NCBI GenBank assembly: GCA_018334595.1
Contig: JAGXLQ010000001.1
Location: 1 to 29,474, forward strand
Origin: Candidatus Bipolaricaulota bacterium
GTDB lineage: Bacteria; Bipolaricaulota; Bipolaricaulia; M55B111
DNA length: 29,474 nt
Reading direction: 5' to 3'
In this document: positions 5,827 through 15,658 of the stretch, piece after piece
Numbering within the stretch: position 1 is the first letter of the stretch
Layout of the letters: the number at the start of each line of letters is the position of its first letter
Notes under the pieces: model-generated
Database searches by the model: none
The model's input: the letters and a program-made list of their open reading frames with translations, nothing else
What the model was told of the DNA's origin: nothing
Translations under genes and position numbers: made by a program

Positions 5827-5856
5827 TTGAAGCGGAGCGGCGGAGTCGATTATAAT
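5827..5856 (+). promoter_or_regulatory. Sigma70-type promoter for the eno operon
   Basis: TTGAAG (5827-5832), 18 nt, TATAAT (5851-5856). ATTATAAT (5849-5856) is palindromic, so it also gives a minus-strand TATAAT toward ftsA. Confidence 0.6.
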
Positions 5857-5931
5857 AAAACGTTCGTTTCTAGCGTAAGAAGTCTATGACATCGCTCAGG
5901 TCAAAACAAATTACAAAAAGGAATGATAAGT

Positions 5932-7188
5932 ATGTCACAAATTAGCGATATAGTCGGCCGCGAGATTCTCGATTCCCGTGGCAATCCGACCGTGGAAGCC
6001 GAAGTAATTTTGGATAATGGTGCTTGGGGTAGGGCCGCTGTGCCGTCAGGAGCCTCGACAGGGTCTCGAGAGGCGCTTGAGCTGCGCGACAACGATCCCG
6101 AGAGATATGGTGGCAAAGGGGTAAGAAAGGCAGTAGATAATATTAACGACGCAATCGCTCCCGCCTTGGACGGATACGATCCCCTATGGCAGGAAGAGAT
6201 AGACGAGAGGCTTATCGACCTTGACGGAACTGACGACAAGAGCAACCTGGGCGCCAACGCCATACTTGGAGTGTCCCTGGCTACGGCTCGTGCGGCAGCC
6301 AACGATCTCGGACTCCCGTTGTTTAAGTACATTGCCGGAGTAACACCGACGAGGCTTCCGATTCCTCTGATGAACGTGCTTAATGGTGGAGCTCACGCTG
6401 GCAACAACCTTGACTTACAGGAGTTTATGATCGTCCCCATCGGGGCCAGCTGTTTCGGGGGGGCTGCGCGGATGGCCTCCGAGGTATTCCACGAGTTGAA
6501 GAGTATACTCTCGGGGCGAGGGATGTCGACCGCCGTCGGCGACGAAGGTGGCTTCGCTCCCGACCTCGATACAGAGGAGGAGGCCCTGGAATTGCTGGTT
6601 AACGCTATGGAATCCGCGGGTTACAGACCCGGGGACGACCTCGCAATTGCCCTCGACCCCGCGGCGAGCGAATTCTACGAAGACGGCCTTTACTCCGTCG
6701 GCGGAGATCAGATGTCCTCCGACGATATGGTTGACATGTATGCCGACTGGGTCCAAAAGTTTCCGATAATCTCGATCGAGGACGGCCTGGACGAGGGCGA
6801 CTGGGATGGCTGGAAGGTTATGACGGACGAGCTGGGCGACAAGATTCAGATAGTTGGTGACGACCTCTTCGTGACAAACGTGGAGATCCTCAAAGAAGGT
6901 ATTGAGAAGAACGTAGCCAACTCGATTTTGATCAAGGTCAACCAGATAGGGACTTTAACCGAGACGATCTGGGCGGTAAGGACGGCGTTAAGGGCGGGCT
7001 ATTCCGCAGTTATATCTCACCGTTCTGGTGAAACCGAGGACACGTTTATCGCTGACCTAGCAACCGGCCTACCGTCTACGCAGCTAAAGTCCGGTTCTCT
7101 ATCCCGGAGCGATAGGATAAGCAAGTATAATCAACTTCTAAGGCTAGAAGAGGAATACGAGCTGAAGCTCGCCGAGTGGCCTAAGTAG
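5932..7188 (+). CDS. eno: Enolase (phosphopyruvate hydratase)
   Basis: [53 protein letters not shown] 5932 is 9 nt after AGGA, whereas ATG 5923 abuts it. Confidence 0.98.
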
Positions 7189-7259: not shown

Positions 7260-7562
7260 ATGGGAGCTGAGTCAAAAAAAGATACCAAGGCCGGTCTGGC
7301 TTCGGGAAAGAAATTGGTTTCGACCCTTCTCATTGTTGCCGTTCTCATCCTGGGCCTTCTAGGCTGGATTTATTGGAATAGGTTTCAAGAGATCTTCGAT
7401 TTGCAAGCTGAGATCGAGCGACTCCGGGACGAAGGCGAAAGGTTACGAGGGAAGATATCGGAGCTCGAGGGAGAACTGAAGAAAAGGAACGACCTCGATT
7501 ACTTCGAGAAGCTGGCAAGGGAAGAGCTGGGATTGGTCTATCCCGAACAGGAAGAGAGTTAA
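7260..7562 (+). CDS. Septum formation initiator FtsB/DivIC family protein
   Basis: One TM helix, then a coiled coil ending in EKLAREELGLV, the FtsB/DivIC signature. It follows eno, the conserved eno-ftsB synteny. Confidence 0.85.
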   Translation: MGAESKKDTKAGLASGKKLVSTLLIVAVLILGLLGWIYWNRFQEIFDLQAEIERLRDEGERLRGKISELEGELKKRNDLDYFEKLAREELGLVYPEQEES

Positions 7563-7591: not shown

Positions 7592-10500
7592 ATGGATTTT
7601 GTTCACCTGCATGTCCACTCCAACTATAGCCTGCTTGACTCCACGAACAAGATAGAAGAGCTACTGGAGAAGACGAAGGAGAAGGACATGTCTTCGATCG
7701 CTCTAACCGACCATGGAAACATAAGGGGAGTGATTAGGTTCTATGACAAGGCCAAGGAGATAGGGGTAAAGCCTATTCTTGGCAGCGAATTATACGTGGC
7801 TCCGGGCAGCCGTTTCACCAAGCAGGGCAAGGACCAGGGAGACGAAAAGTACTTCCACCTGGTCGTTCTCGCCAAGGATGCCGGGGGTTATCGCAACCTC
7901 GTTAAGCTATCCAGCAAGGCGTTTACAGAAGGTTTCTACTACAAACCGAGGGTTGACAATGAACTGCTGGAGGAGTACTCGGACGGGCTCATTGCCTTGA
8001 GCGCCTGCAAAAGCGGAGAGGTGCCGAAAAAACTGTTGAGGAATGATCGTCAGGGCGCACTGGAATCTGCCAGGAGGCTGTCCGCTATATTTGGTGAGGA
8101 CGACTTTTTCATAGAGCTGCAAGACCAGGGAGTCGAGGGACAGGAAGAGCTAAACGAGAAGTTGATTGACGTGGCGGAGGAGCTGGACCTGGGAATAGTG
8201 GCGACCAACGACGTTCATTACCCGGAAGCTGAGGACCGTCTGGCCCACGAGGTCCTGTTAAACATCAAGGCGAACAAGAAGATCACGGACGAGGACCGCA
8301 TGCGCTACGAGGGAGAGGAGTACTATTTAAAGTCCCCCGAAGAGATGTGGGAGCGGTTCTCTCACCTGCCGGAAGCGATCGAAAACACCGTTGAGATAGC
8401 TGACAGGTGTAACGTGGAGCTGGACTTCGGAGAGGAGTACCTCCTGCCCCCATTTGAGGTCCCGGAAGGATATGATGCCTCCGGTGAGTATCTACGGGAG
8501 CTGGTCGAGGAAGGTGCGAAGGACCGCTGGGGCGAGATAACGGACAAGATTCAGGACCGCATAGATCACGAGTTGAGCATTATCGGGGAGATGGGGTACC
8601 CAACCTATTTTCTCATCGTTCGGGATTTCATTAGGTTTGCCCGTGACAACGATATACCCGTCGGTCCCGGCCGTGGGTCGGCCGCTTCCAGCGTGGTGGC
8701 CTATACGCTCGGGATCACCGATATAGACCCTCTTGAACACGAACTCCTCTTTGAGAGATTTCTCAACCCGGGACGGGTTAGCATGCCCGATATCGACATC
8801 GACTTCTGCATGGAAGGGCGCGACCGGGTTATCAAGTACGTCGTGGACAAGTACGGCGAGGACCACGTGGCTCAGATAGCGACGTTTGACACCATGGCTG
8901 CCAGGTCGTCGATAAGGGACGTAGCGAGGGTTCTCGATATTCCCTACGATGATGCCGACCAAATAGCCAAGGCCATCCCACCCGGTACGTCACTTGACGA
9001 GGCGATGGAATCCGTGCCCGACTTCACGGAGAAATACAACGCGAACGAGACGTATCGGCAGCTCTTCGACATTGCCCGCAAGCTGGAGGGGCTTTTCCGC
9101 AACGCCTCGACGCACGCGGCTGGGGTAGTCATAGCCCCGGGAAAGCTGACCAATTACGCCCCGCTGCAGAGGTTGAGTGACGGGGAAATAGTCACGCAGT
9201 ACGACATGGAAGTCCTTGAGGACATCGGACTACTTAAGATGGACTTCCTCGGGTTGAGGAACCTTACGATTATTGACAAGGCGTTTAACCTGATCGAGAA
9301 GGCCGAGGGGGAGGAGTTGACGCTGGCCGACATCCCCGAAAACGACGAGAAGACGTTTGAACTGCTCAAACGGGGGGATACTATCGGCGTCTTTCAGCTC
9401 GAGAGCGAAGGAATGCAGGGCTTGATGAAGCGACTCGAGCCCGAGGAGTTTGAGGATATCATTGCTGCCAACGCCCTCTACCGGCCGGGTCCCCTGGAGA
9501 GTGGAATGACGGAGGATTACATTAAGAGGAAGCACGGCAACCAGGAAGTGACCTATCCCCACCCGGAGTTGCAGGGCGTTCTGGACGAGACCTACGGACT
9601 TCCAATCTATCAGGAGCAGATAATGCAGATGGCTCAGGAGCTCGCCGGGTTCTCGCTCCCCGAGGCAGATACCCTGAGGGTCGCGATGGGCAAGAAGAAG
9701 AAGAAAGTTATGGCTCAACTTAAGGAAAAATTTATTCAGGGTTGTATCGATAACGATATCTCCGAGGAAAAGGCCAAGAACCTCTTTGCGGACATAGATA
9801 AGTTCTCACGGTACGGCTTCAACAAGTCTCACTCTACGGCTTACGCGCGAATATCCTATTCCACGGCGTGGTTGAAGGCCAACCATTCCGCAGCATATAT
9901 GTCCAGCCTCCTGACGAGCGTGGGTGGTAACGAGGACAAGGTGGAGAAGTACATCAAGGATTGTGAGGACATGGGGATCAAGGTCCTCCCGCCTGACGTG
10001 AACGAAAGCTACCTCGAATTCAGCCCCACCCCGGATGGGAACATCCGCTTCGGGCTCGAAGCGGTAAAGTACGTCGGCAGCGAACCCGCTCGGGCTATTG
10101 TCGAGTCCCGCGGGGAGGGATACAGTTCGTTCCTTGGGTTGTGTCAGCGGGTCGGCGGTAGTTTGAACAAGGAAGCGTTAGAGAGCCTGATCCGCGTCGG
10201 CGCGTTTGACCGCTTTGGCACCAGGAAATACCTGCTATCGCAGATTCAAAAGGGACTGGAGATAGGGGGGATCTCAGCAAACCAGAAGAAGAGCGGCCAG
10301 AAATCCTTCTTTGACCAGGGTGTCTCCTTCAAGGAAGAGACCAAGGACAAGGAGCAAATGGAAGAATTTCCCCGGGCACAATGTCTCCGGATGGAAAAGG
10401 AGTACCTCGGAGTATATATTAGCGGGGATCCCCTGGAGGAGCACCGGACCGAACTTGAGTCCTTTTCTTGCTGTAACCTGGACGAACTGCCGACCAACTC

Positions 10501-11011
10501 CAAGAACGGTTCAGCCTGGCTGGCAGGGCGTATCAGCGAGATAAATCAGATAAACACGAGAAAGGGCGACCCGATGGCCTTCTTTACGATCTCCGACGGT
10601 TACGGAGAACAGGAACTCGTTGCCTTTCCGGAAGTCTTTCAAAAGTCGAGCTCGTTACTCGTAGATGACAACATCCTGGTGATAAAGGCAAAGATCGGTG
10701 AAAGGAATGGGAACCAACAGCTGATTGCGAGCAAGTTGTTCTCGATTGAGGACGCTTGGGAAAAACTGAAGAAGGAACTTGAACTGGTAGTGAACGCCAA
10801 TTTGATTCACGATGAATCGTTCGACAGGTTACGCGATCTAGTAGACGAGGGTGATACCCCCGTCTACTTCAAGCTGTGCGATGAGGGGACTGATAGGTAC
10901 GTCGTCGTCAAATCCGGCAGCCAATTCCGGATCAAGGTCGACAGGGACCTCTTACATGATCTCAGGGAACTGGAAGAGGTAACCGACGTGAAGATATCAC
11001 CTACAGGGTAA
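7592..11011 (+). CDS. dnaE: DNA polymerase III alpha subunit
   Basis: PHP motifs HLHVHSNYSLLD, TDHGN, NDVHY; GRGSAASS; catalytic PDIDIDF; GLLKMDFLGLRNLT; FNKSHSTAY; C-terminal OB fold. No intein is evident (1139 aa). Confidence 0.98.
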   Translation: MDFVHLHVHSNYSLLDSTNKIEELLEKTKEKDMSSIALTDHGNIRGVIRFYDKAKEIGVKPILGSELYVAPGSRFTKQGKDQGDEKYFHLVVLAKDAGGYRNLVKLSSKAFTEGFYYKPRVDNELLEEYSDGLIALSACKSGEVPKKLLRNDRQGALESARRLSAIFGEDDFFIELQDQGVEGQEELNEKLIDVAEELDLGIVATNDVHYPEAEDRLAHEVLLNIKANKKITDEDRMRYEGEEYYLKSPEEMWERFSHLPEAIENTVEIADRCNVELDFGEEYLLPPFEVPEGYDASGEYLRELVEEGAKDRWGEITDKIQDRIDHELSIIGEMGYPTYFLIVRDFIRFARDNDIPVGPGRGSAASSVVAYTLGITDIDPLEHELLFERFLNPGRVSMPDIDIDFCMEGRDRVIKYVVDKYGEDHVAQIATFDTMAARSSIRDVARVLDIPYDDADQIAKAIPPGTSLDEAMESVPDFTEKYNANETYRQLFDIARKLEGLFRNASTHAAGVVIAPGKLTNYAPLQRLSDGEIVTQYDMEVLEDIGLLKMDFLGLRNLTIIDKAFNLIEKAEGEELTLADIPENDEKTFELLKRGDTIGVFQLESEGMQGLMKRLEPEEFEDIIAANALYRPGPLESGMTEDYIKRKHGNQEVTYPHPELQGVLDETYGLPIYQEQIMQMAQELAGFSLPEADTLRVAMGKKKKKVMAQLKEKFIQGCIDNDISEEKAKNLFADIDKFSRYGFNKSHSTAYARISYSTAWLKANHSAAYMSSLLTSVGGNEDKVEKYIKDCEDMGIKVLPPDVNESYLEFSPTPDGNIRFGLEAVKYVGSEPARAIVESRGEGYSSFLGLCQRVGGSLNKEALESLIRVGAFDRFGTRKYLLSQIQKGLEIGGISANQKKSGQKSFFDQGVSFKEETKDKEQMEEFPRAQCLRMEKEYLGVYISGDPLEEHRTELESFSCCNLDELPTNSKNGSAWLAGRISEINQINTRKGDPMAFFTISDGYGEQELVAFPEVFQKSSSLLVDDNILVIKAKIGERNGNQQLIASKLFSIEDAWEKLKKELELVVNANLIHDESFDRLRDLVDEGDTPVYFKLCDEGTDRYVVVKSGSQFRIKVDRDLLHDLRELEEVTDVKISPTG

Positions 11012-12294
11012 TGAAGAGAAAAGAGATGGATTGGAAGGGAATATTTAAGTGGTTTTATCCGGGAATGAAGGTGAAGCGTTGGGGACTGCTGGTGCTCCTC
11101 TCCGCGATATTATTTGGCTTTTCAATATTGCTTCTCGTGGGGAGAGACTGGGTAGGCCTAGTTTACAACACCCTTCTTTCCCAACCGGCTTACTATTACC
11201 TGGCCGCCTCCCTCGGCCTTCTGGCTGGCGTTATTGGTCTGATCTGGGGAGTAAATCGTGTTACACACTCGATTACGACGGTTATCAAGCCACCGAGTCG
11301 TTCCACCTCCGATATCATCTGGCAAAGCCGTCTCCTCGACAAAGGCGTCAAAGTCGTAGCCGTGGGTGGAGGTACCGGCCTCTCCGTTCTCTTACGTGGG
11401 CTAAAGAAACATACTGCCAACATAACTGCTATTGTCACGGTAATGGACGACGGGGGTAGCTCTGGTAGGCTTCGGAAGGAGATGAATATGCTCCCCCCCG
11501 GCGACATCAGAAACTGTTTGATCGCACTTGCAGACGACGAATCGAAGATGAGCAGGGTATTTCAGCACCGGTTCCATGACGGGGCTGGGCTCGGAGGTCA
11601 CTCCCTGGGGAACCTAATTATAGCGGGGATGGAGCAGATTGAGGGGGGATTTGACCTCGCGATAGAGGAGACTAGCAACCTGTTGAACATTAGAGGGAGG
11701 GTGGTACCCTCAACTTTGAAGAACACCCACATCGTGGCCACGCTGGAAGGAGGAAAGGTGGTGACGGGTGAGAGCAGTCTCCATAAACACCCGGAGAGGA
11801 TTGAGAGGATAACGCTAGCCGAACCCGCCGCTCCCTATTCCCAGGCGGTGGAGGCCATTGAGGGTGCAGACGTGATTATTCTTGGGCCGGGCAGCCTATA
11901 TACGTCAATTATCCCCAACATGTTGGTTGACGGTATCCCCGAAGCTATAGAAGGATCCCCGGCGACTAAGTACTACGTAACCAACGTGATGACCGAACCG
12001 GGAGAGACCGATGGGATGTCCGCCTGTGACCACCTCGGGGCGCTCAACTCCTATATAGAGGTCTCTTGCCTTGATTATGGCATCGTAAACACCGGTGACG
12101 TCGATAGGGACATTCTGGTTAGGTACGTGGAGGAAGGGTCGGGGCTTGTGGAAGCCGACCTTGGGTCCGATAATAAGTACGGTTTGAAGTTAATTGAAGG
12201 TGACTTGATAGAGCTGGTGAAACTGGAGGGGAAACAGACGGTCAAGCACAACCACGAGCATTTGGCCACATTAATCCTCGATAGTTGCCAATAG
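11011..12294 (+). CDS. YvcK/UPF0052 (gluconeogenesis factor, CofD-like) protein with N-terminal membrane segment
   Basis: VAVGGGTGLS, TVMDDGGSSG, PPGDIRNCL, GHSLGNL, LGPGSLYTSIIPN, NVMTEPGET; N-terminal WFYPGMKVKRW plus two TM helices. TAATG overlap with the dnaE stop. Confidence 0.92.
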   Translation: MKRKEMDWKGIFKWFYPGMKVKRWGLLVLLSAILFGFSILLLVGRDWVGLVYNTLLSQPAYYYLAASLGLLAGVIGLIWGVNRVTHSITTVIKPPSRSTSDIIWQSRLLDKGVKVVAVGGGTGLSVLLRGLKKHTANITAIVTVMDDGGSSGRLRKEMNMLPPGDIRNCLIALADDESKMSRVFQHRFHDGAGLGGHSLGNLIIAGMEQIEGGFDLAIEETSNLLNIRGRVVPSTLKNTHIVATLEGGKVVTGESSLHKHPERIERITLAEPAAPYSQAVEAIEGADVIILGPGSLYTSIIPNMLVDGIPEAIEGSPATKYYVTNVMTEPGETDGMSACDHLGALNSYIEVSCLDYGIVNTGDVDRDILVRYVEEGSGLVEADLGSDNKYGLKLIEGDLIELVKLEGKQTVKHNHEHLATLILDSCQ

Positions 12295-12350
12295 AGATAT
12301 CGGTTCGAGTGTTTGAACAGCCCCATAATTGATAGAAGGTGAGGTATTTA

Positions 12351-14183
12351 ATGAATGATTCCCGGGAAAAGTATATCCCCGATCTGAGCGTGATAGTAGA
12401 CGGAGGCATCACTGAGCTAGTCTCAACGAGGCAGTTGCAAGGGGTAGAGGTTGTCGTACCCGAGGTCGTAGTCCTTGAACTGGAAGCCGAAGCGACGAAC
12501 GGTCAGGAAACTGGATACAAGGGTTTGAACGAGTTAAAGAAGCTGAGGGAATTCTGCGAGGAGGGTCTAATTGACCTGAAGTTCGAGGGCGCGGAGGACC
12601 TGAGTCCTGCCCCACCAGGCCCGAAGGGGTTGGATCCGGTAATCAGAGGCCTAGCTCAGCGACTTCACGGTACGCTGATTACGAACAACAAAATTCAAGC
12701 CTCAATTGCTCGCAGCAAGGGGTTGTCCGTGCAACTGCACCGGCCGCGAGGGAAGGATACGGAAAAGAGTTTAGAGGGGTTGGAACTGCTGGATTACTTC
12801 GATGAGACGACTATGTCCGTTCACCTTCGCGCGGATACGGTACCACGCGCCAAGATGGGTACACCGGATTCGGTCCAACTCGAGTCGATAAGCGAAAAGA
12901 AGCTCAGTTCTGAGCGACTGGAACAGCTGACTGAAGAAATAGTTGAGGTTGCTGATGTCCACCCTGCCGGCTTTATCGAGATGGATTCGGGTGGCGCGTC
13001 GGTAGTTCAGCTGGGCAATATTCGTATAGCGATAGCCAAGCCGCCTTTTTCCGATGCGATAGAGATTACGGCTACCCGTCCGGTCAAGAAGACGACGATT
13101 GCCGACTACTCCTATTCCGAGCTCATAGAGAGCAGGTTACAGCAATCACACCGTGGCGTGCTGGTTGCCGGCGCTCCGGGGATGGGAAAATCAACTCTGG
13201 TGCAGGCTCTGTCGGAGTTCCTTCGGGATTCCGGTTGGATCGTCAAGACCATGGAAAAGCCTCGTGACCTGGACGTTTCTCCGGAGATAAGTCAGTACCG
13301 TGATTTGAACGGGGAGATGGCGGATACGGCGGAAATACTCCTGTTGACCCGGCCTGACTACACGATTTTTGATGAGATGAGGCAGACCTCCGACTTCGAG
13401 GTCTTTGCCGACCTCCGCATGTCGGGCGTTGGCCTGGTTGGGGTAGTTCACGCGACCAAGGCCATTGATTCGTTACAGCGCCTTGTGGGCAGGGTAGAAC
13501 TCGGAATGATCCCTCAAATCGTGGATACCGTTTTGCACGTGGATGGGGGAGATATCAAGAAGGTGTTCGACGTTGAGATGACTGTAAAGACACCATCAGG
13601 TATGGAGCAGGGTGACCTATCCAGGCCGGTCATCGAGGTCCGGGATTTCGAAACCGGAAGTCTGAGCTACGAGATCTATACGTTCGGAGAACAGGTAGTA
13701 GTCATTCCCCTGGAAGGCCAGGAGCAGAACAGAATCTGGGACTTTGCGACGTCGGGACTGGAGGATCAGCTGGCCCAGGAGTTGCCATTTGACTTCGACC
13801 TGGAAATAAGATCCAACAACCGTATAGCGATTTACGTGGCCGATCACCACGTACCCGCGGTCCTCGGTCATGGAGGGAAGAGGGTAGATGCCCTTGAAAA
13901 AAAGGTGGGACTTCACATTGACGTGAGGACCTTCGCCGAGAGAGAGAGTTCTTCGCCTACTTCACCTGACTTCCGGGTCAAAAATTCTGACGAGTACCTG
14001 CTGCTGAATTTTGACCCTTCCTTCAGCAACGAGGAGATAGAGATATCGATTAACGGGGAACGCGTCTTCTCCGGAGCGGTATCCAAGAAAGGACGGATTA
14101 AGCTGACCAAGGATACTCACCAGGCAAGACGGATAAAGAAGGCGCAACGTGAAGGGGATAAGATTACAGTCAACAAGCTCTAG
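12351..14183 (+). CDS. PIN domain - ATPase - KH domain protein (archaeal PINA / COG1855-like)
   Basis: PIN-like N-terminus (IPDLSVIVDG, VPEVVVLELE), Walker A GAPGMGKST, KTMEKPRDL, Walker B YTIFDEMR, GVGLVGVVHA, RVELGMIPQIVDT, KH GxxG (VLGHGGKRVDALEKKVGLHIDV). ATG 12351 follows GAGGT. Confidence 0.85.
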   Translation: MNDSREKYIPDLSVIVDGGITELVSTRQLQGVEVVVPEVVVLELEAEATNGQETGYKGLNELKKLREFCEEGLIDLKFEGAEDLSPAPPGPKGLDPVIRGLAQRLHGTLITNNKIQASIARSKGLSVQLHRPRGKDTEKSLEGLELLDYFDETTMSVHLRADTVPRAKMGTPDSVQLESISEKKLSSERLEQLTEEIVEVADVHPAGFIEMDSGGASVVQLGNIRIAIAKPPFSDAIEITATRPVKKTTIADYSYSELIESRLQQSHRGVLVAGAPGMGKSTLVQALSEFLRDSGWIVKTMEKPRDLDVSPEISQYRDLNGEMADTAEILLLTRPDYTIFDEMRQTSDFEVFADLRMSGVGLVGVVHATKAIDSLQRLVGRVELGMIPQIVDTVLHVDGGDIKKVFDVEMTVKTPSGMEQGDLSRPVIEVRDFETGSLSYEIYTFGEQVVVIPLEGQEQNRIWDFATSGLEDQLAQELPFDFDLEIRSNNRIAIYVADHHVPAVLGHGGKRVDALEKKVGLHIDVRTFAERESSSPTSPDFRVKNSDEYLLLNFDPSFSNEEIEISINGERVFSGAVSKKGRIKLTKDTHQARRIKKAQREGDKITVNKL

Positions 14184-14188
14184 GGCGG

Positions 14189-15658
14189 TTACCCCTTAAC
14201 GACTATTATCGGTTTGAGCTTGGCCACTTTTGGTGTCAGTCCATTGGTGTCGACAGAATCAACCACCCTGTCCACGTCCTTGTAAGCACCGGGAGCCTCC
14301 TCTGCCAGTCCGGGGTAGGAGTGCGATTTTACTACTATTCCCCTCGACCTGAGAGACGTCTCCACGTCCTCACCCCAGAATTTCGACTTGGCCTTCTTGC
14401 GAGACATCGCCCTCCCTGCACCGTGAATCCCGCTGCCGAACGTCATTTTCATTGCCGTCTCCGTTCCCCGTAGGACGTAGGAGGATGACCCCATCGTCCC
14501 CCCGACGAGTACCGGCCCGCCGACTCCTCTGTAGGCCTTGGGTAACTCTTTGCGCCCCGGCCCGAACGCCCGCGTGGCCCCCTTTCTGTGGACCAGTAAT
14601 CGTTGTTGGACTCCGTTCACGGTGTGGTCTTCGACCTTGGCGGTGTTGTGGCCCACTTCGTAGACGGTCCTTATCTCCTGTGGTGGGATGTCGACGACCC
14701 GTGAGAACCCCCGGCGTGCCAGTCCGGCCAGGACCTGGCGGTTGGCAAAGGCGCAGTTCATTCCACATCTCATGGCGCTCAGGTATTCTCTCCCCTCGGG
14801 GCTGTCTATCGGTGCGGATACCAACTCCCGTTCCTCGATCGGGAGGTCGTATTTTTTGCTGGCGTCCTTCAGTTTGGAGAGGTAGTCCTGCCCTATTTGA
14901 TGACCGAGGGCCCGGGAGCCCGTATGTATTGATATGACTATTTGACCCTCGTGTAAGCCGTAAGTGTCCCCGGCCTCCCGGTCGTAAATTTCCTTTACCT
15001 CCTGTACTTCCAGGTAGTGATTGCCTGAACCGAGGGTCCCCACCTGTTTAAATTGACGCTGTTTGGCGCGCCGGCTGACGTTTTTCGGGTCCGCTCCGTC
15101 GATCCGCCCGTTTTCCTCTACATATTCAAGGTCGTCTTCGATCCCGTAACCGATTTCCAACCCGAACCTAGCTCCCTGGACGAGCGCCTTATCTATCTCC
15201 TCGATCGAAAGGTTGATTTCGCCTTCGGACCCAAGTCCTGCGGGGACCGTCCTGTAAAGGGTGTCTGCCAGTTTGTCCTTGACCTTGGTTACGTCACGGA
15301 CTTCTAGAGGGGTCCTCAGTAAACGGACGCCGCAGTTGATGTCAAACCCCACGCCACCGGCAACGACTACTCCGTCCTCCACGTCGAATGCCCCTACGCC
15401 GCCAATCGGGAATCCATAACCGGGGTGGATGTCTGCCAGGCCGATGGACGCGGAGACGATACCCGGAAGGGAAGCCACGTTTATCAGTTGCTCCAGCGAA
15501 CTCCATTGGTCCTCTTGTCGATACTCAGCGAGGAGTCCTTTAGCGGAATCCCGGTCGACAAACAACCTGCCGGGAACGTTCATCTTCCCGAACTCCTCGA
15601 TTTCCCAGGTGTTCTTGTCCAGCTCCTTCAGACTAATCTCTTGTCCGTTCAACGTCAT
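14189..15658 (-). CDS. rtcB: RNA 2',3'-cyclic/3'-phosphate ligase RtcB, long archaeal/eukaryal-type form
   Basis: DIHPGYGFPIGG, GFDINCGVR, GTLGSGNHYLE, IHTGSR, HNTAK, HRKGATRA, HGAGR (nucleophile His), EEAPGAYKD, VVKG terminus. The true start may be TTG 15652, which has better spacing to GGAGG. Confidence 0.96.
   Translation of the reverse strand: MTLNGQEISLKELDKNTWEIEEFGKMNVPGRLFVDRDSAKGLLAEYRQEDQWSSLEQLINVASLPGIVSASIGLADIHPGYGFPIGGVGAFDVEDGVVVAGGVGFDINCGVRLLRTPLEVRDVTKVKDKLADTLYRTVPAGLGSEGEINLSIEEIDKALVQGARFGLEIGYGIEDDLEYVEENGRIDGADPKNVSRRAKQRQFKQVGTLGSGNHYLEVQEVKEIYDREAGDTYGLHEGQIVISIHTGSRALGHQIGQDYLSKLKDASKKYDLPIEERELVSAPIDSPEGREYLSAMRCGMNCAFANRQVLAGLARRGFSRVVDIPPQEIRTVYEVGHNTAKVEDHTVNGVQQRLLVHRKGATRAFGPGRKELPKAYRGVGGPVLVGGTMGSSSYVLRGTETAMKMTFGSGIHGAGRAMSRKKAKSKFWGEDVETSLRSRGIVVKSHSYPGLAEEAPGAYKDVDRVVDSVDTNGLTPKVAKLKPIIVVKG

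Follow-up and report, generated by a model that had tools for sequence, protein, structure and literature searches.

A bacterial member of the PINA/COG1855 ATPase family with an altered PIN active site in Candidatus Bipolaricaulota

The PINA family has been described as "specific to all Archaea" (PMC1852104), as an "archaea-specific family" whose genes never occur in secretion contexts (PMC4858521), and as "conserved in Archaea" and present in every sequenced archaeon (PMC6061704). Its best described representative, SisPINA of Sulfolobus islandicus, is a hexameric-ring ATPase which carries out Holliday-junction branch migration and flap unwinding and belongs to a network with Hjc and Hjm (PMC6061704). 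The pina gene is essential in S. islandicus and dispensable in S. acidocaldarius, and its deletion in the latter results in cold sensitivity, not in mitomycin C sensitivity (PMC8775617). In the literature searched, no discussion of bacterial members of the family was found and nuclease activity of the PIN domain was not mentioned for PINA. In this work a gene of this family was analysed, which lies at positions 12351-14183 on the forward strand of a 29,474-nucleotide (nt) stretch of contig (the window) from the metagenome-assembled genome (MAG) of a Bipolaricaulota bacterium (1.5 Mb, 75.5% complete, 236 contigs). The gene itself is ordinary and automatically annotated; what is new here is a bacterial, long-inherited PINA/COG1855 member with an evolutionary signal at its PIN site. 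With some reserve we favour the reading that it is a functional orthologue, acquired once and vertically inherited since then, which works as a nucleic-acid motor with a non-catalytic PIN domain.

The deduced protein, numbered from the ATG at 12351, scored 731.2 bits with the NF010335 model (PRK13764, COG1855; cut-off 340), and its residues 5-608 were aligned to positions 3-611 of the 613 positions of the model. According to Pfam matches, alignments and AlphaFold models, the order of its domains is that of NF010335/COG1855, namely PIN, PilT-like ATPase, KH and a C-terminal beta domain. The gene and the parts of its product are the following:

12351..14183, + strand: PINA-family (NF010335/PRK13764/COG1855) ATPase gene, 610 amino acids (aa) plus stop
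12351..12746, + strand: PIN domain, residues 1-132 (alignments; predicted local distance difference test score, pLDDT, of the model ~90; template modelling score, TM, 0.79 to 3i8o)
12381-12383, + strand: codon of D11, PIN acidic position 1
12687-12689, + strand: codon AAC of N113, aligned with the fourth PIN Asp of the homologues
12747..13715, + strand: N-terminal beta domain and PilT/VirB11-class ATPase core, residues 133-455 (PF00437 match)
13170-13196, + strand: Walker A, GAPGMGKST, inside the ATPase core
13350-13376, + strand: Walker B, PDYTIFDE, inside the ATPase core
13716..13940, + strand: type II KH domain, residues 456-530 (PF07650 match; pLDDT 88 model)
13866-13877, + strand: GxxG loop of the KH domain, GHGG, with G506 and G509 invariant in the family
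13941..14180, + strand: C-terminal beta domain with one helix, residues ~538-610 (pLDDT ~93-96)

The preliminary description of the window, made from the sequence, had reported a complete three-domain architecture of PIN, ATPase and KH. These three domains could all be recognized, but the architecture was not complete, since the fourth, C-terminal beta domain had been missed. The Walker A and B motifs (GAPGMGKST, PDYTIFDEMR) were intact, and the Walker A, Walker B, His and Arg columns were invariant among 86 homologues. The same number of homologues was used for the full-length AlphaFold monomer model, which had a mean pLDDT of 77 and reached about 90 in the PIN domain as well as in the C-terminal one; a second model covered residues 456-610 with a pLDDT of 88. 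The Pfam match of the PIN domain was weak (17 bits), and its predicted model could be superposed on the PIN domain of MJ1533 (3i8o, TM 0.79). The predicted KH fold resembled the KH domains of ribosomal protein S3, archaeal NusA, Era and aCPSF (VIA-align Z 8-9). For the C-terminal beta domain neither a Pfam match nor a convincing Protein Data Bank match was obtained; in the ESM Atlas the same fold recurs in other clusters of the PINA family and in archaeal proteins of 108-163 aa that consist of a KH domain standing by itself with this fold. Its assignment as an S1/OB domain was considered and rejected, since, besides the lack of such matches, hhalign returned only 32 KH columns with a probability of 49%. 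As a separate observation, the PNPase of this genome (KH and two S1 stretches; L095:1117-2979, - strand) weakly matched the PRK13764 model in its KH region, and the likeness did not extend beyond the GxxG segment.

The name PINA, used in the preliminary description, holds for the protein at the level of COG1855/NF010335 and not at the level of the Sulfolobus PINA equivalog: the crenarchaeal model NF053733 (HJMigATPsPINA) gave 403.1 bits with a cut-off of 800, and the window protein is the four-domain, euryarchaeal-type form. In the sequence comparison with solved structures SisPINA was the best match (5f4h, E 7e-103; 5f4h and 5yww both at about 1e-102 over residues 33-455), and 3i8o, the PIN domain of MJ1533, was also among the best ones. 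When the AlphaFold model was used in a fold search, 5f4h was found with an E value of 8e-44, while PilT, GspE, VirB11 and CpaF reached only about 1e-11. The TIGR01420 model of the PilT/PilU type IVa pilus ATPases gave 22.7 bits (cut-off 319.1) and the other pilus and secretion ATPase models about 20 bits, far under their cut-offs. The protein did not resemble the YacL-like PIN/TRAM proteins either, being 610 aa long with an ATPase core and without a TRAM match. Thus, the proposed grouping with archaeal COG1855/PINA-type proteins, and not with bacterial PilT or YacL, was confirmed.

The closest described proteins are the euryarchaeal PRK13764/COG1855 "PINc/VapC family ATPases" of the MJ1533 type, which share the same four domains over the full length with 42-49% identity, the same GxxG loop in the KH domain and the same C-terminal beta domain, and pass the same NCBIfam model. 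They differ in having archaeal hosts and the PIN tetrad DEDD (99 of 99 archaeal-side sequences), whereas in the window the host is a bacterium and the fourth Asp is replaced by Asn. The likeness to SisPINA consists in the PIN-ATPase-KH order, the conserved Walker motifs and 34% identity over about 458 columns; however, SisPINA has only 505 aa, with no C-terminal domain and no GxxG in its KH domain (PMC6061704), while the window protein carries GHGG. The PilT, VirB11 and GspE ATPases belong to the same ATPase superfamily and have the fold of hexameric ring motors, but they have no PIN or KH domain, and the window gene does not lie in a secretion context. With RuvB and RecG only a functional analogy is possible (ATP-driven migration of branched DNA), the folds being unrelated; since both are separately encoded in this genome, the PINA-family gene is not their replacement. 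The YacL-type PIN/TRAM proteins share the N-terminal PIN domain of the PilT-N type and lack the ATPase, KH and C-terminal domains. Proteins of about 350 aa in other Bipolaricaulota genomes matched positions 6-134 of the model and may be of the YacL type. In the databases the proteins of the present family are named "PINc/VapC family ATPase" and in some cases "Flp pilus assembly complex ATPase component TadA".

The strongest difference between the bacterial and the archaeal proteins was observed at the PIN active site. The unusual motifs pointed out earlier, PDLS and LITNNK, are found in the translation as D11-L12-S13 and T111-N112-N113, and the tetrad of the window protein is D11, E45, D95 and N113, that is DEDN in place of the DEDD of NF010335/COG1855. 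DEDD was present in all 70 archaeal loci and in 99 of the 99 tips outside the bacterial clade. Within the bacterial clade it was kept in 52 of the 112 sequences and altered in 60, which requires at least nine changes on the tree. The altered tetrads were DEHS (34, the group of GTDB family f5), DEDN (7, the window and two close relatives among them), DEED (6), DEND (5), DEDH (4), DAAD (2), DEES (1) and DEKD (1). Since a congener with 86% identity keeps Asp at position 113, the change in the window protein is recent. The suggestion of a possibly nuclease-dead PIN domain is thus supported by the loss of the fourth acidic residue, and a degenerate tetrad is a recurrent trait of the bacterial proteins.

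In order to describe the distribution of the gene, the families of Bipolaricaulota in GTDB are called f1 to f11 here, f1 being the family of the window. NF010335 was above its cut-off in 47 of the 184 Bipolaricaulota genomes. The carriers fall in f1 (17/18), f5 (15/18), f7 (9/9), f2 (1/1), f3 (1/1), f9 (1/1) and f10 (2/3), while no gene was found in f4 (0/74), f6 (0/50), f8 (0/4) and f11 (0/4). Of 14 control genomes, the four archaeal ones alone exceeded the cut-off. When prokaryotic species were scanned with one genome each, 594 relatives were obtained, and the best 80 of them were from Bipolaricaulota together with many Euryarchaeota, Thermoplasmatota and Hydrothermarchaeota; the closest proteins carry the names Candidatus Bipolaricaulota or Bipolaricaulia. 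Carriers in Thermotogae or Fraserbacteria were considered and discarded: the MAGs so labelled (L014, L021) are genomes that GTDB puts in Bipolaricaulia, and L017, from the set labelled "uncultured Thermotogae" or "Candidatus Fraserbacteria", lies inside the Bipolaricaulota clade of the protein tree. In view of these placements the taxon labels in the record titles are unreliable here. Among other bacteria the family was detected only in a narrow lineage of Anaerolineales (2 of 31 relatives), in a form without the C-terminal domain. These copies, from two related MAGs labelled Anaerolineales (L037/L094:1354-3441, - strand, and L093), are on a long branch, match only positions 5-527 of the model and have the tetrad DEES; they look like a secondary transfer from Bipolaricaulota.

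The protein trees, which were unrooted and included no crenarchaeal or other sequence of the Thaum-, Aig-, Cren- and Korarchaeota group (TACK), separated the bacterial copies from the archaeal ones. With IQ-TREE (72 sequences) all bacterial copies were on one side of a branch with a Shimodaira-Hasegawa-like approximate likelihood ratio (SH-aLRT) support of 99, beside Euryarchaeota, and formed two subclades, f1+f3 and f5+f7+f9. With FastTree (211 sequences) the bacterial clade had 112 tips, a support of 99 and no archaeal locus inside. The apparent sister of this clade, L028, was on a long branch with a support of 91 and was not trusted. In an RpoB tree of 40 Bipolaricaulota genomes a branch with a support of 91 separated the carriers and the non-carrier family f8 from f4, f6 and f11. 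The presence of the gene needs two changes of state on this tree, which indicates that one major lineage has inherited it vertically and that it was later lost once. Since the family is described as present in every sequenced archaeon (PMC6061704) and was found in only two lineages of bacteria, a transfer from archaea to bacteria is the economical reading; alternatively, the gene may have been present in the ancestor of the phylum and then lost in the other lineage.

The selection acting on the gene was estimated by comparison with the 86%-identical congener. The ratio of nonsynonymous to synonymous divergence (dN/dS) was 0.02-0.16 in every domain, the values being rough since the synonymous sites are near saturation (proportion of synonymous differences, pS, 0.5-0.7). 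The ATPase core was 97% identical to that of the congener (dN 0.02) and the PIN domain evolved about eight times faster; in the sub-lineage of the window the PIN domain was less conserved than in archaeal pairs with a comparable overall divergence, for instance 0.75 at 0.86 overall, compared with 0.82 at 0.86 overall in an archaeal pair. By these estimates the PIN domain is still under purifying selection. The frame was open over its full length in all 47 carriers, save for genes cut by contig ends and one with a TAG codon. The preliminary description had taken the gene for a horizontally acquired or relict one; an intact gene under purifying selection, present in 47 of the 184 genomes with two changes on the RpoB tree, fits neither a recent acquisition nor a relict.

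The genome of the window encodes RuvB, RuvC and RecG. RuvA is encoded in both congeners and was not found in the 75.5%-complete MAG of the window. Neither Hjc (PF01870) nor domain 4 of Hel308/Hjm (PF21280) was found in five Bipolaricaulota genomes, two of which are 96-99% complete, while both models matched in archaeal control genomes. The network with Hjc and Hjm described for SisPINA (PMC6061704) therefore cannot be transferred to this bacterium. With these two partners undetected and with RuvB, RuvC and RecG encoded, the protein probably works by itself or together with bacterial partners.

According to the reading favoured here, the gene would have come a single time from a euryarchaeon-like donor into the ancestor of one major lineage of Bipolaricaulota and would have been transmitted vertically since then, as the distribution and the trees suggest. 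The product would form a hexameric ring of the PilT/VirB11 class coupling ATP hydrolysis to the moving or remodelling of nucleic acid, which would be held by the KH domain and the C-terminal module, and the PIN domain would probably be retained as a structural or binding module and not as a nuclease. By analogy with SisPINA the protein may drive branch migration or unwind DNA with forks or flaps, alone or with bacterial partners. DNA is given a somewhat higher weight than RNA as the probable substrate only because the one activity measured so far for this family acts on DNA. Several points speak against this reading. The DNA role derives from one crenarchaeal protein, which belongs to the other equivalog and has neither the C-terminal domain nor a GxxG loop in its KH domain (PMC6061704); the measured activity is that of SisPINA and of no bacterial or euryarchaeal member. 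The deletion of pina without mitomycin C sensitivity is unlike what would be expected for a core repair motor (PMC8775617), and the gene is linked to dnaE in only one family of the phylum. The replacement of D by N at one PIN position is no proof of a full loss of activity. Finally, the direction of transfer from archaea to bacteria, although the economical reading, is deduced only from the distribution, with no TACK outgroup in the tree.

Whether the motor would act on RNA instead has to be considered together with the surroundings of the gene, in which the following features were identified, the other genes by Pfam or NCBIfam matches:

5923-7188, + strand: eno (enolase)
7260-7562, + strand: divIC/ftsB-like gene
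7592-11011, + strand: dnaE
11011-12294, + strand: yvcK (CofD-family, YvcK-type)
12341..12345, + strand: ribosome-binding site GAGGT of the PINA-family gene, 5 nt before the ATG at 12351, read from the sequence
14189..15658, - strand: rtcB, convergent with the PINA-family gene (PF01139 match)

Beyond rtcB, archease, thpR and topA follow on the strand opposite to the PINA-family gene. The order dnaE-yvcK-PINA gene facing rtcB was found in independent assemblies and within f1 only. The link to the bacterial replisome proposed in the preliminary description had no other ground than this order, which only a single family of Bipolaricaulota shows, and it was not upheld.

An RNA-directed motor would be a ring ATPase which remodels or feeds RNA or ribonucleoproteins at the KH and C-terminal module, with a role in RNA processing, repair or ribosome biogenesis. 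The canonical GxxG of the KH domain is kept, the fold of this domain is nearest to the KH domains of ribosomal protein S3, NusA, Era, RbfA and aCPSF, and the ancestry of both the KH and the PIN domain points the same way. In f1 the gene faces rtcB-archease-thpR with 5 nt between the stops, and the cold sensitivity of the Sulfolobus pina deletion without mitomycin C sensitivity (PMC8775617) would also suit a function of this kind. In one Candidatus Methanoperedens locus (L056:2301-6203) PINA, archease and rtcB are on one strand, other Methanoperedens loci being without this arrangement; it is a second, independent adjacency of PINA and rtcB besides the convergent one of the window. However, the adjacency in the window is convergent and not operonic, the available biochemistry concerns DNA junction migration and flap unwinding (PMC6061704), and the 83 nearest neighbours counted over 42 archaeal loci included no recurrent RNA-processing family and archease only once. 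On balance an RNA-directed motor is possible, but we would put it forward only with hesitation.

A joint explanation of the PIN site and the missing partners can also be formulated. The archaeal PIN site may be a working nuclease tied to archaeal partners or substrates, and after the transfer the bacterial protein may have been adapted, as a motor without nuclease function, to another task, possibly the repair of RNA ends with RtcB-archease. The grounds for it are the strict archaeal DEDD compared with the repeated loss in bacteria, and the five genomes in which Hjc and Hel308 were not found. We consider this combination rather unlikely and offer it tentatively.

It is very improbable that the gene is a decaying, useless remnant of a horizontal transfer. 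A PIN catalytic residue has been lost, the PIN domain evolves about eight times faster than the ATPase core and many families of the phylum lack the gene, all of which would speak for a remnant; but the full-length frame in the 47 carriers, with the few exceptions given above, the dN/dS of 0.02-0.16 in every domain, the invariant ATPase and KH motifs and a presence that tracks the species tree are contrary to decay. An archaeal fragment misbinned or misassembled into a bacterial MAG, which an otherwise archaeal family and a 75.5%-complete genome in 236 contigs might suggest, is refuted by the repeated occurrence of the order dnaE-yvcK-gene-rtcB in independent assemblies; the gene also has a central place in a 29-kb contig, flanked by bacterial dnaE-yvcK on one side and rtcB-topA on the other, the bacterial copies form a clan of their own, and the chance of such an artefact is negligible. 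Just as negligible is the chance of a PilT/TadA-like ATPase of pili or secretion, an assignment suggested by the PF00437 match and by the TadA names at NCBI and refuted as a family by the TIGR01420 score (22.7 against 319) and by the low scores of the other secretion models, since the fold matches to PilT, GspE and CpaF were more than 30 orders of magnitude weaker than that to SisPINA, no pilus or secretion gene is among the identified flanks from eno to topA, and such genes are never in secretion contexts (PMC4858521).

The literature treats PINA/COG1855 as an archaeal signature and its cellular role is unsettled. With a motor kept for long, with no detectable Hjc/Hjm, with a full RuvABC/RecG set alongside and with repeated decay of the PIN site, the bacterial clade is a natural separation-of-function series, which shows the parts of the protein that matter without the archaeal partners and gives a testable prediction of an archaeal PIN activity.

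As for the gene itself, the open reading frame (ORF) at 12351-14183, its GAGGT ribosome-binding site, the 56-nt distance from yvcK and the upstream order eno-ftsB-dnaE-yvcK were all as given in the preliminary description. The frame is open from 12339/12351 to 14183 (+ strand), and the ATG at 12351, giving 610 aa, is the preferred start; the GTG at 12339 is less likely since it lies inside the purine-rich Shine-Dalgarno stretch. The spacer between the yvcK stop, ending at 12294, and the start of the gene is 56 nt long. The convergent stops of the PINA-family gene and rtcB are separated by 5 nt (14184-14188) without a terminator-like hairpin, so the transcripts must enter the coding sequence of each other unless they are terminated inside it. 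A promoter-like site was noticed at 5827-5856, upstream of eno, such sites being no commoner in the window than in shuffled sequence. A promoter or terminator belonging to the PINA-family gene itself was also looked for and rejected: there was none in the 56-nt spacer, and promoter- and terminator-like sites were no commoner than in shuffled sequence. The stop of dnaE and the ATG start of yvcK overlap. The YvcK homologue has 427 aa, its CofD domain begins at residue 115 and about 114 N-terminal residues precede it without a Pfam match.

Other neighbours were observed elsewhere in the family. In the f5 loci, those with the DEHS tetrad, a free-standing GAF-domain gene of 146-159 aa is directly upstream on the same strand (L017:3547-3996, L018, L019:3523-4002, L020:3507-3947, L021:3547-3987), and in most of them it either runs into the start of the PINA-family gene or directly adjoins it. 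In the same loci mutL is about 0.5 kb downstream, beyond one ORF on the opposite strand. A general functional neighbourhood could not be maintained, the only recurrent genes among the 83 archaeal neighbours being hisI (9) and MinD/ParA-like genes (4-6). The hisI gene (phosphoribosyl-AMP cyclohydrolase) is the sole strongly recurrent one, being an immediate neighbour in 9 of the 42 euryarchaeal-side loci, and it was directly upstream in the three loci checked singly (L025:3564-3995, L077:3544-3957, L039:3579-3959).

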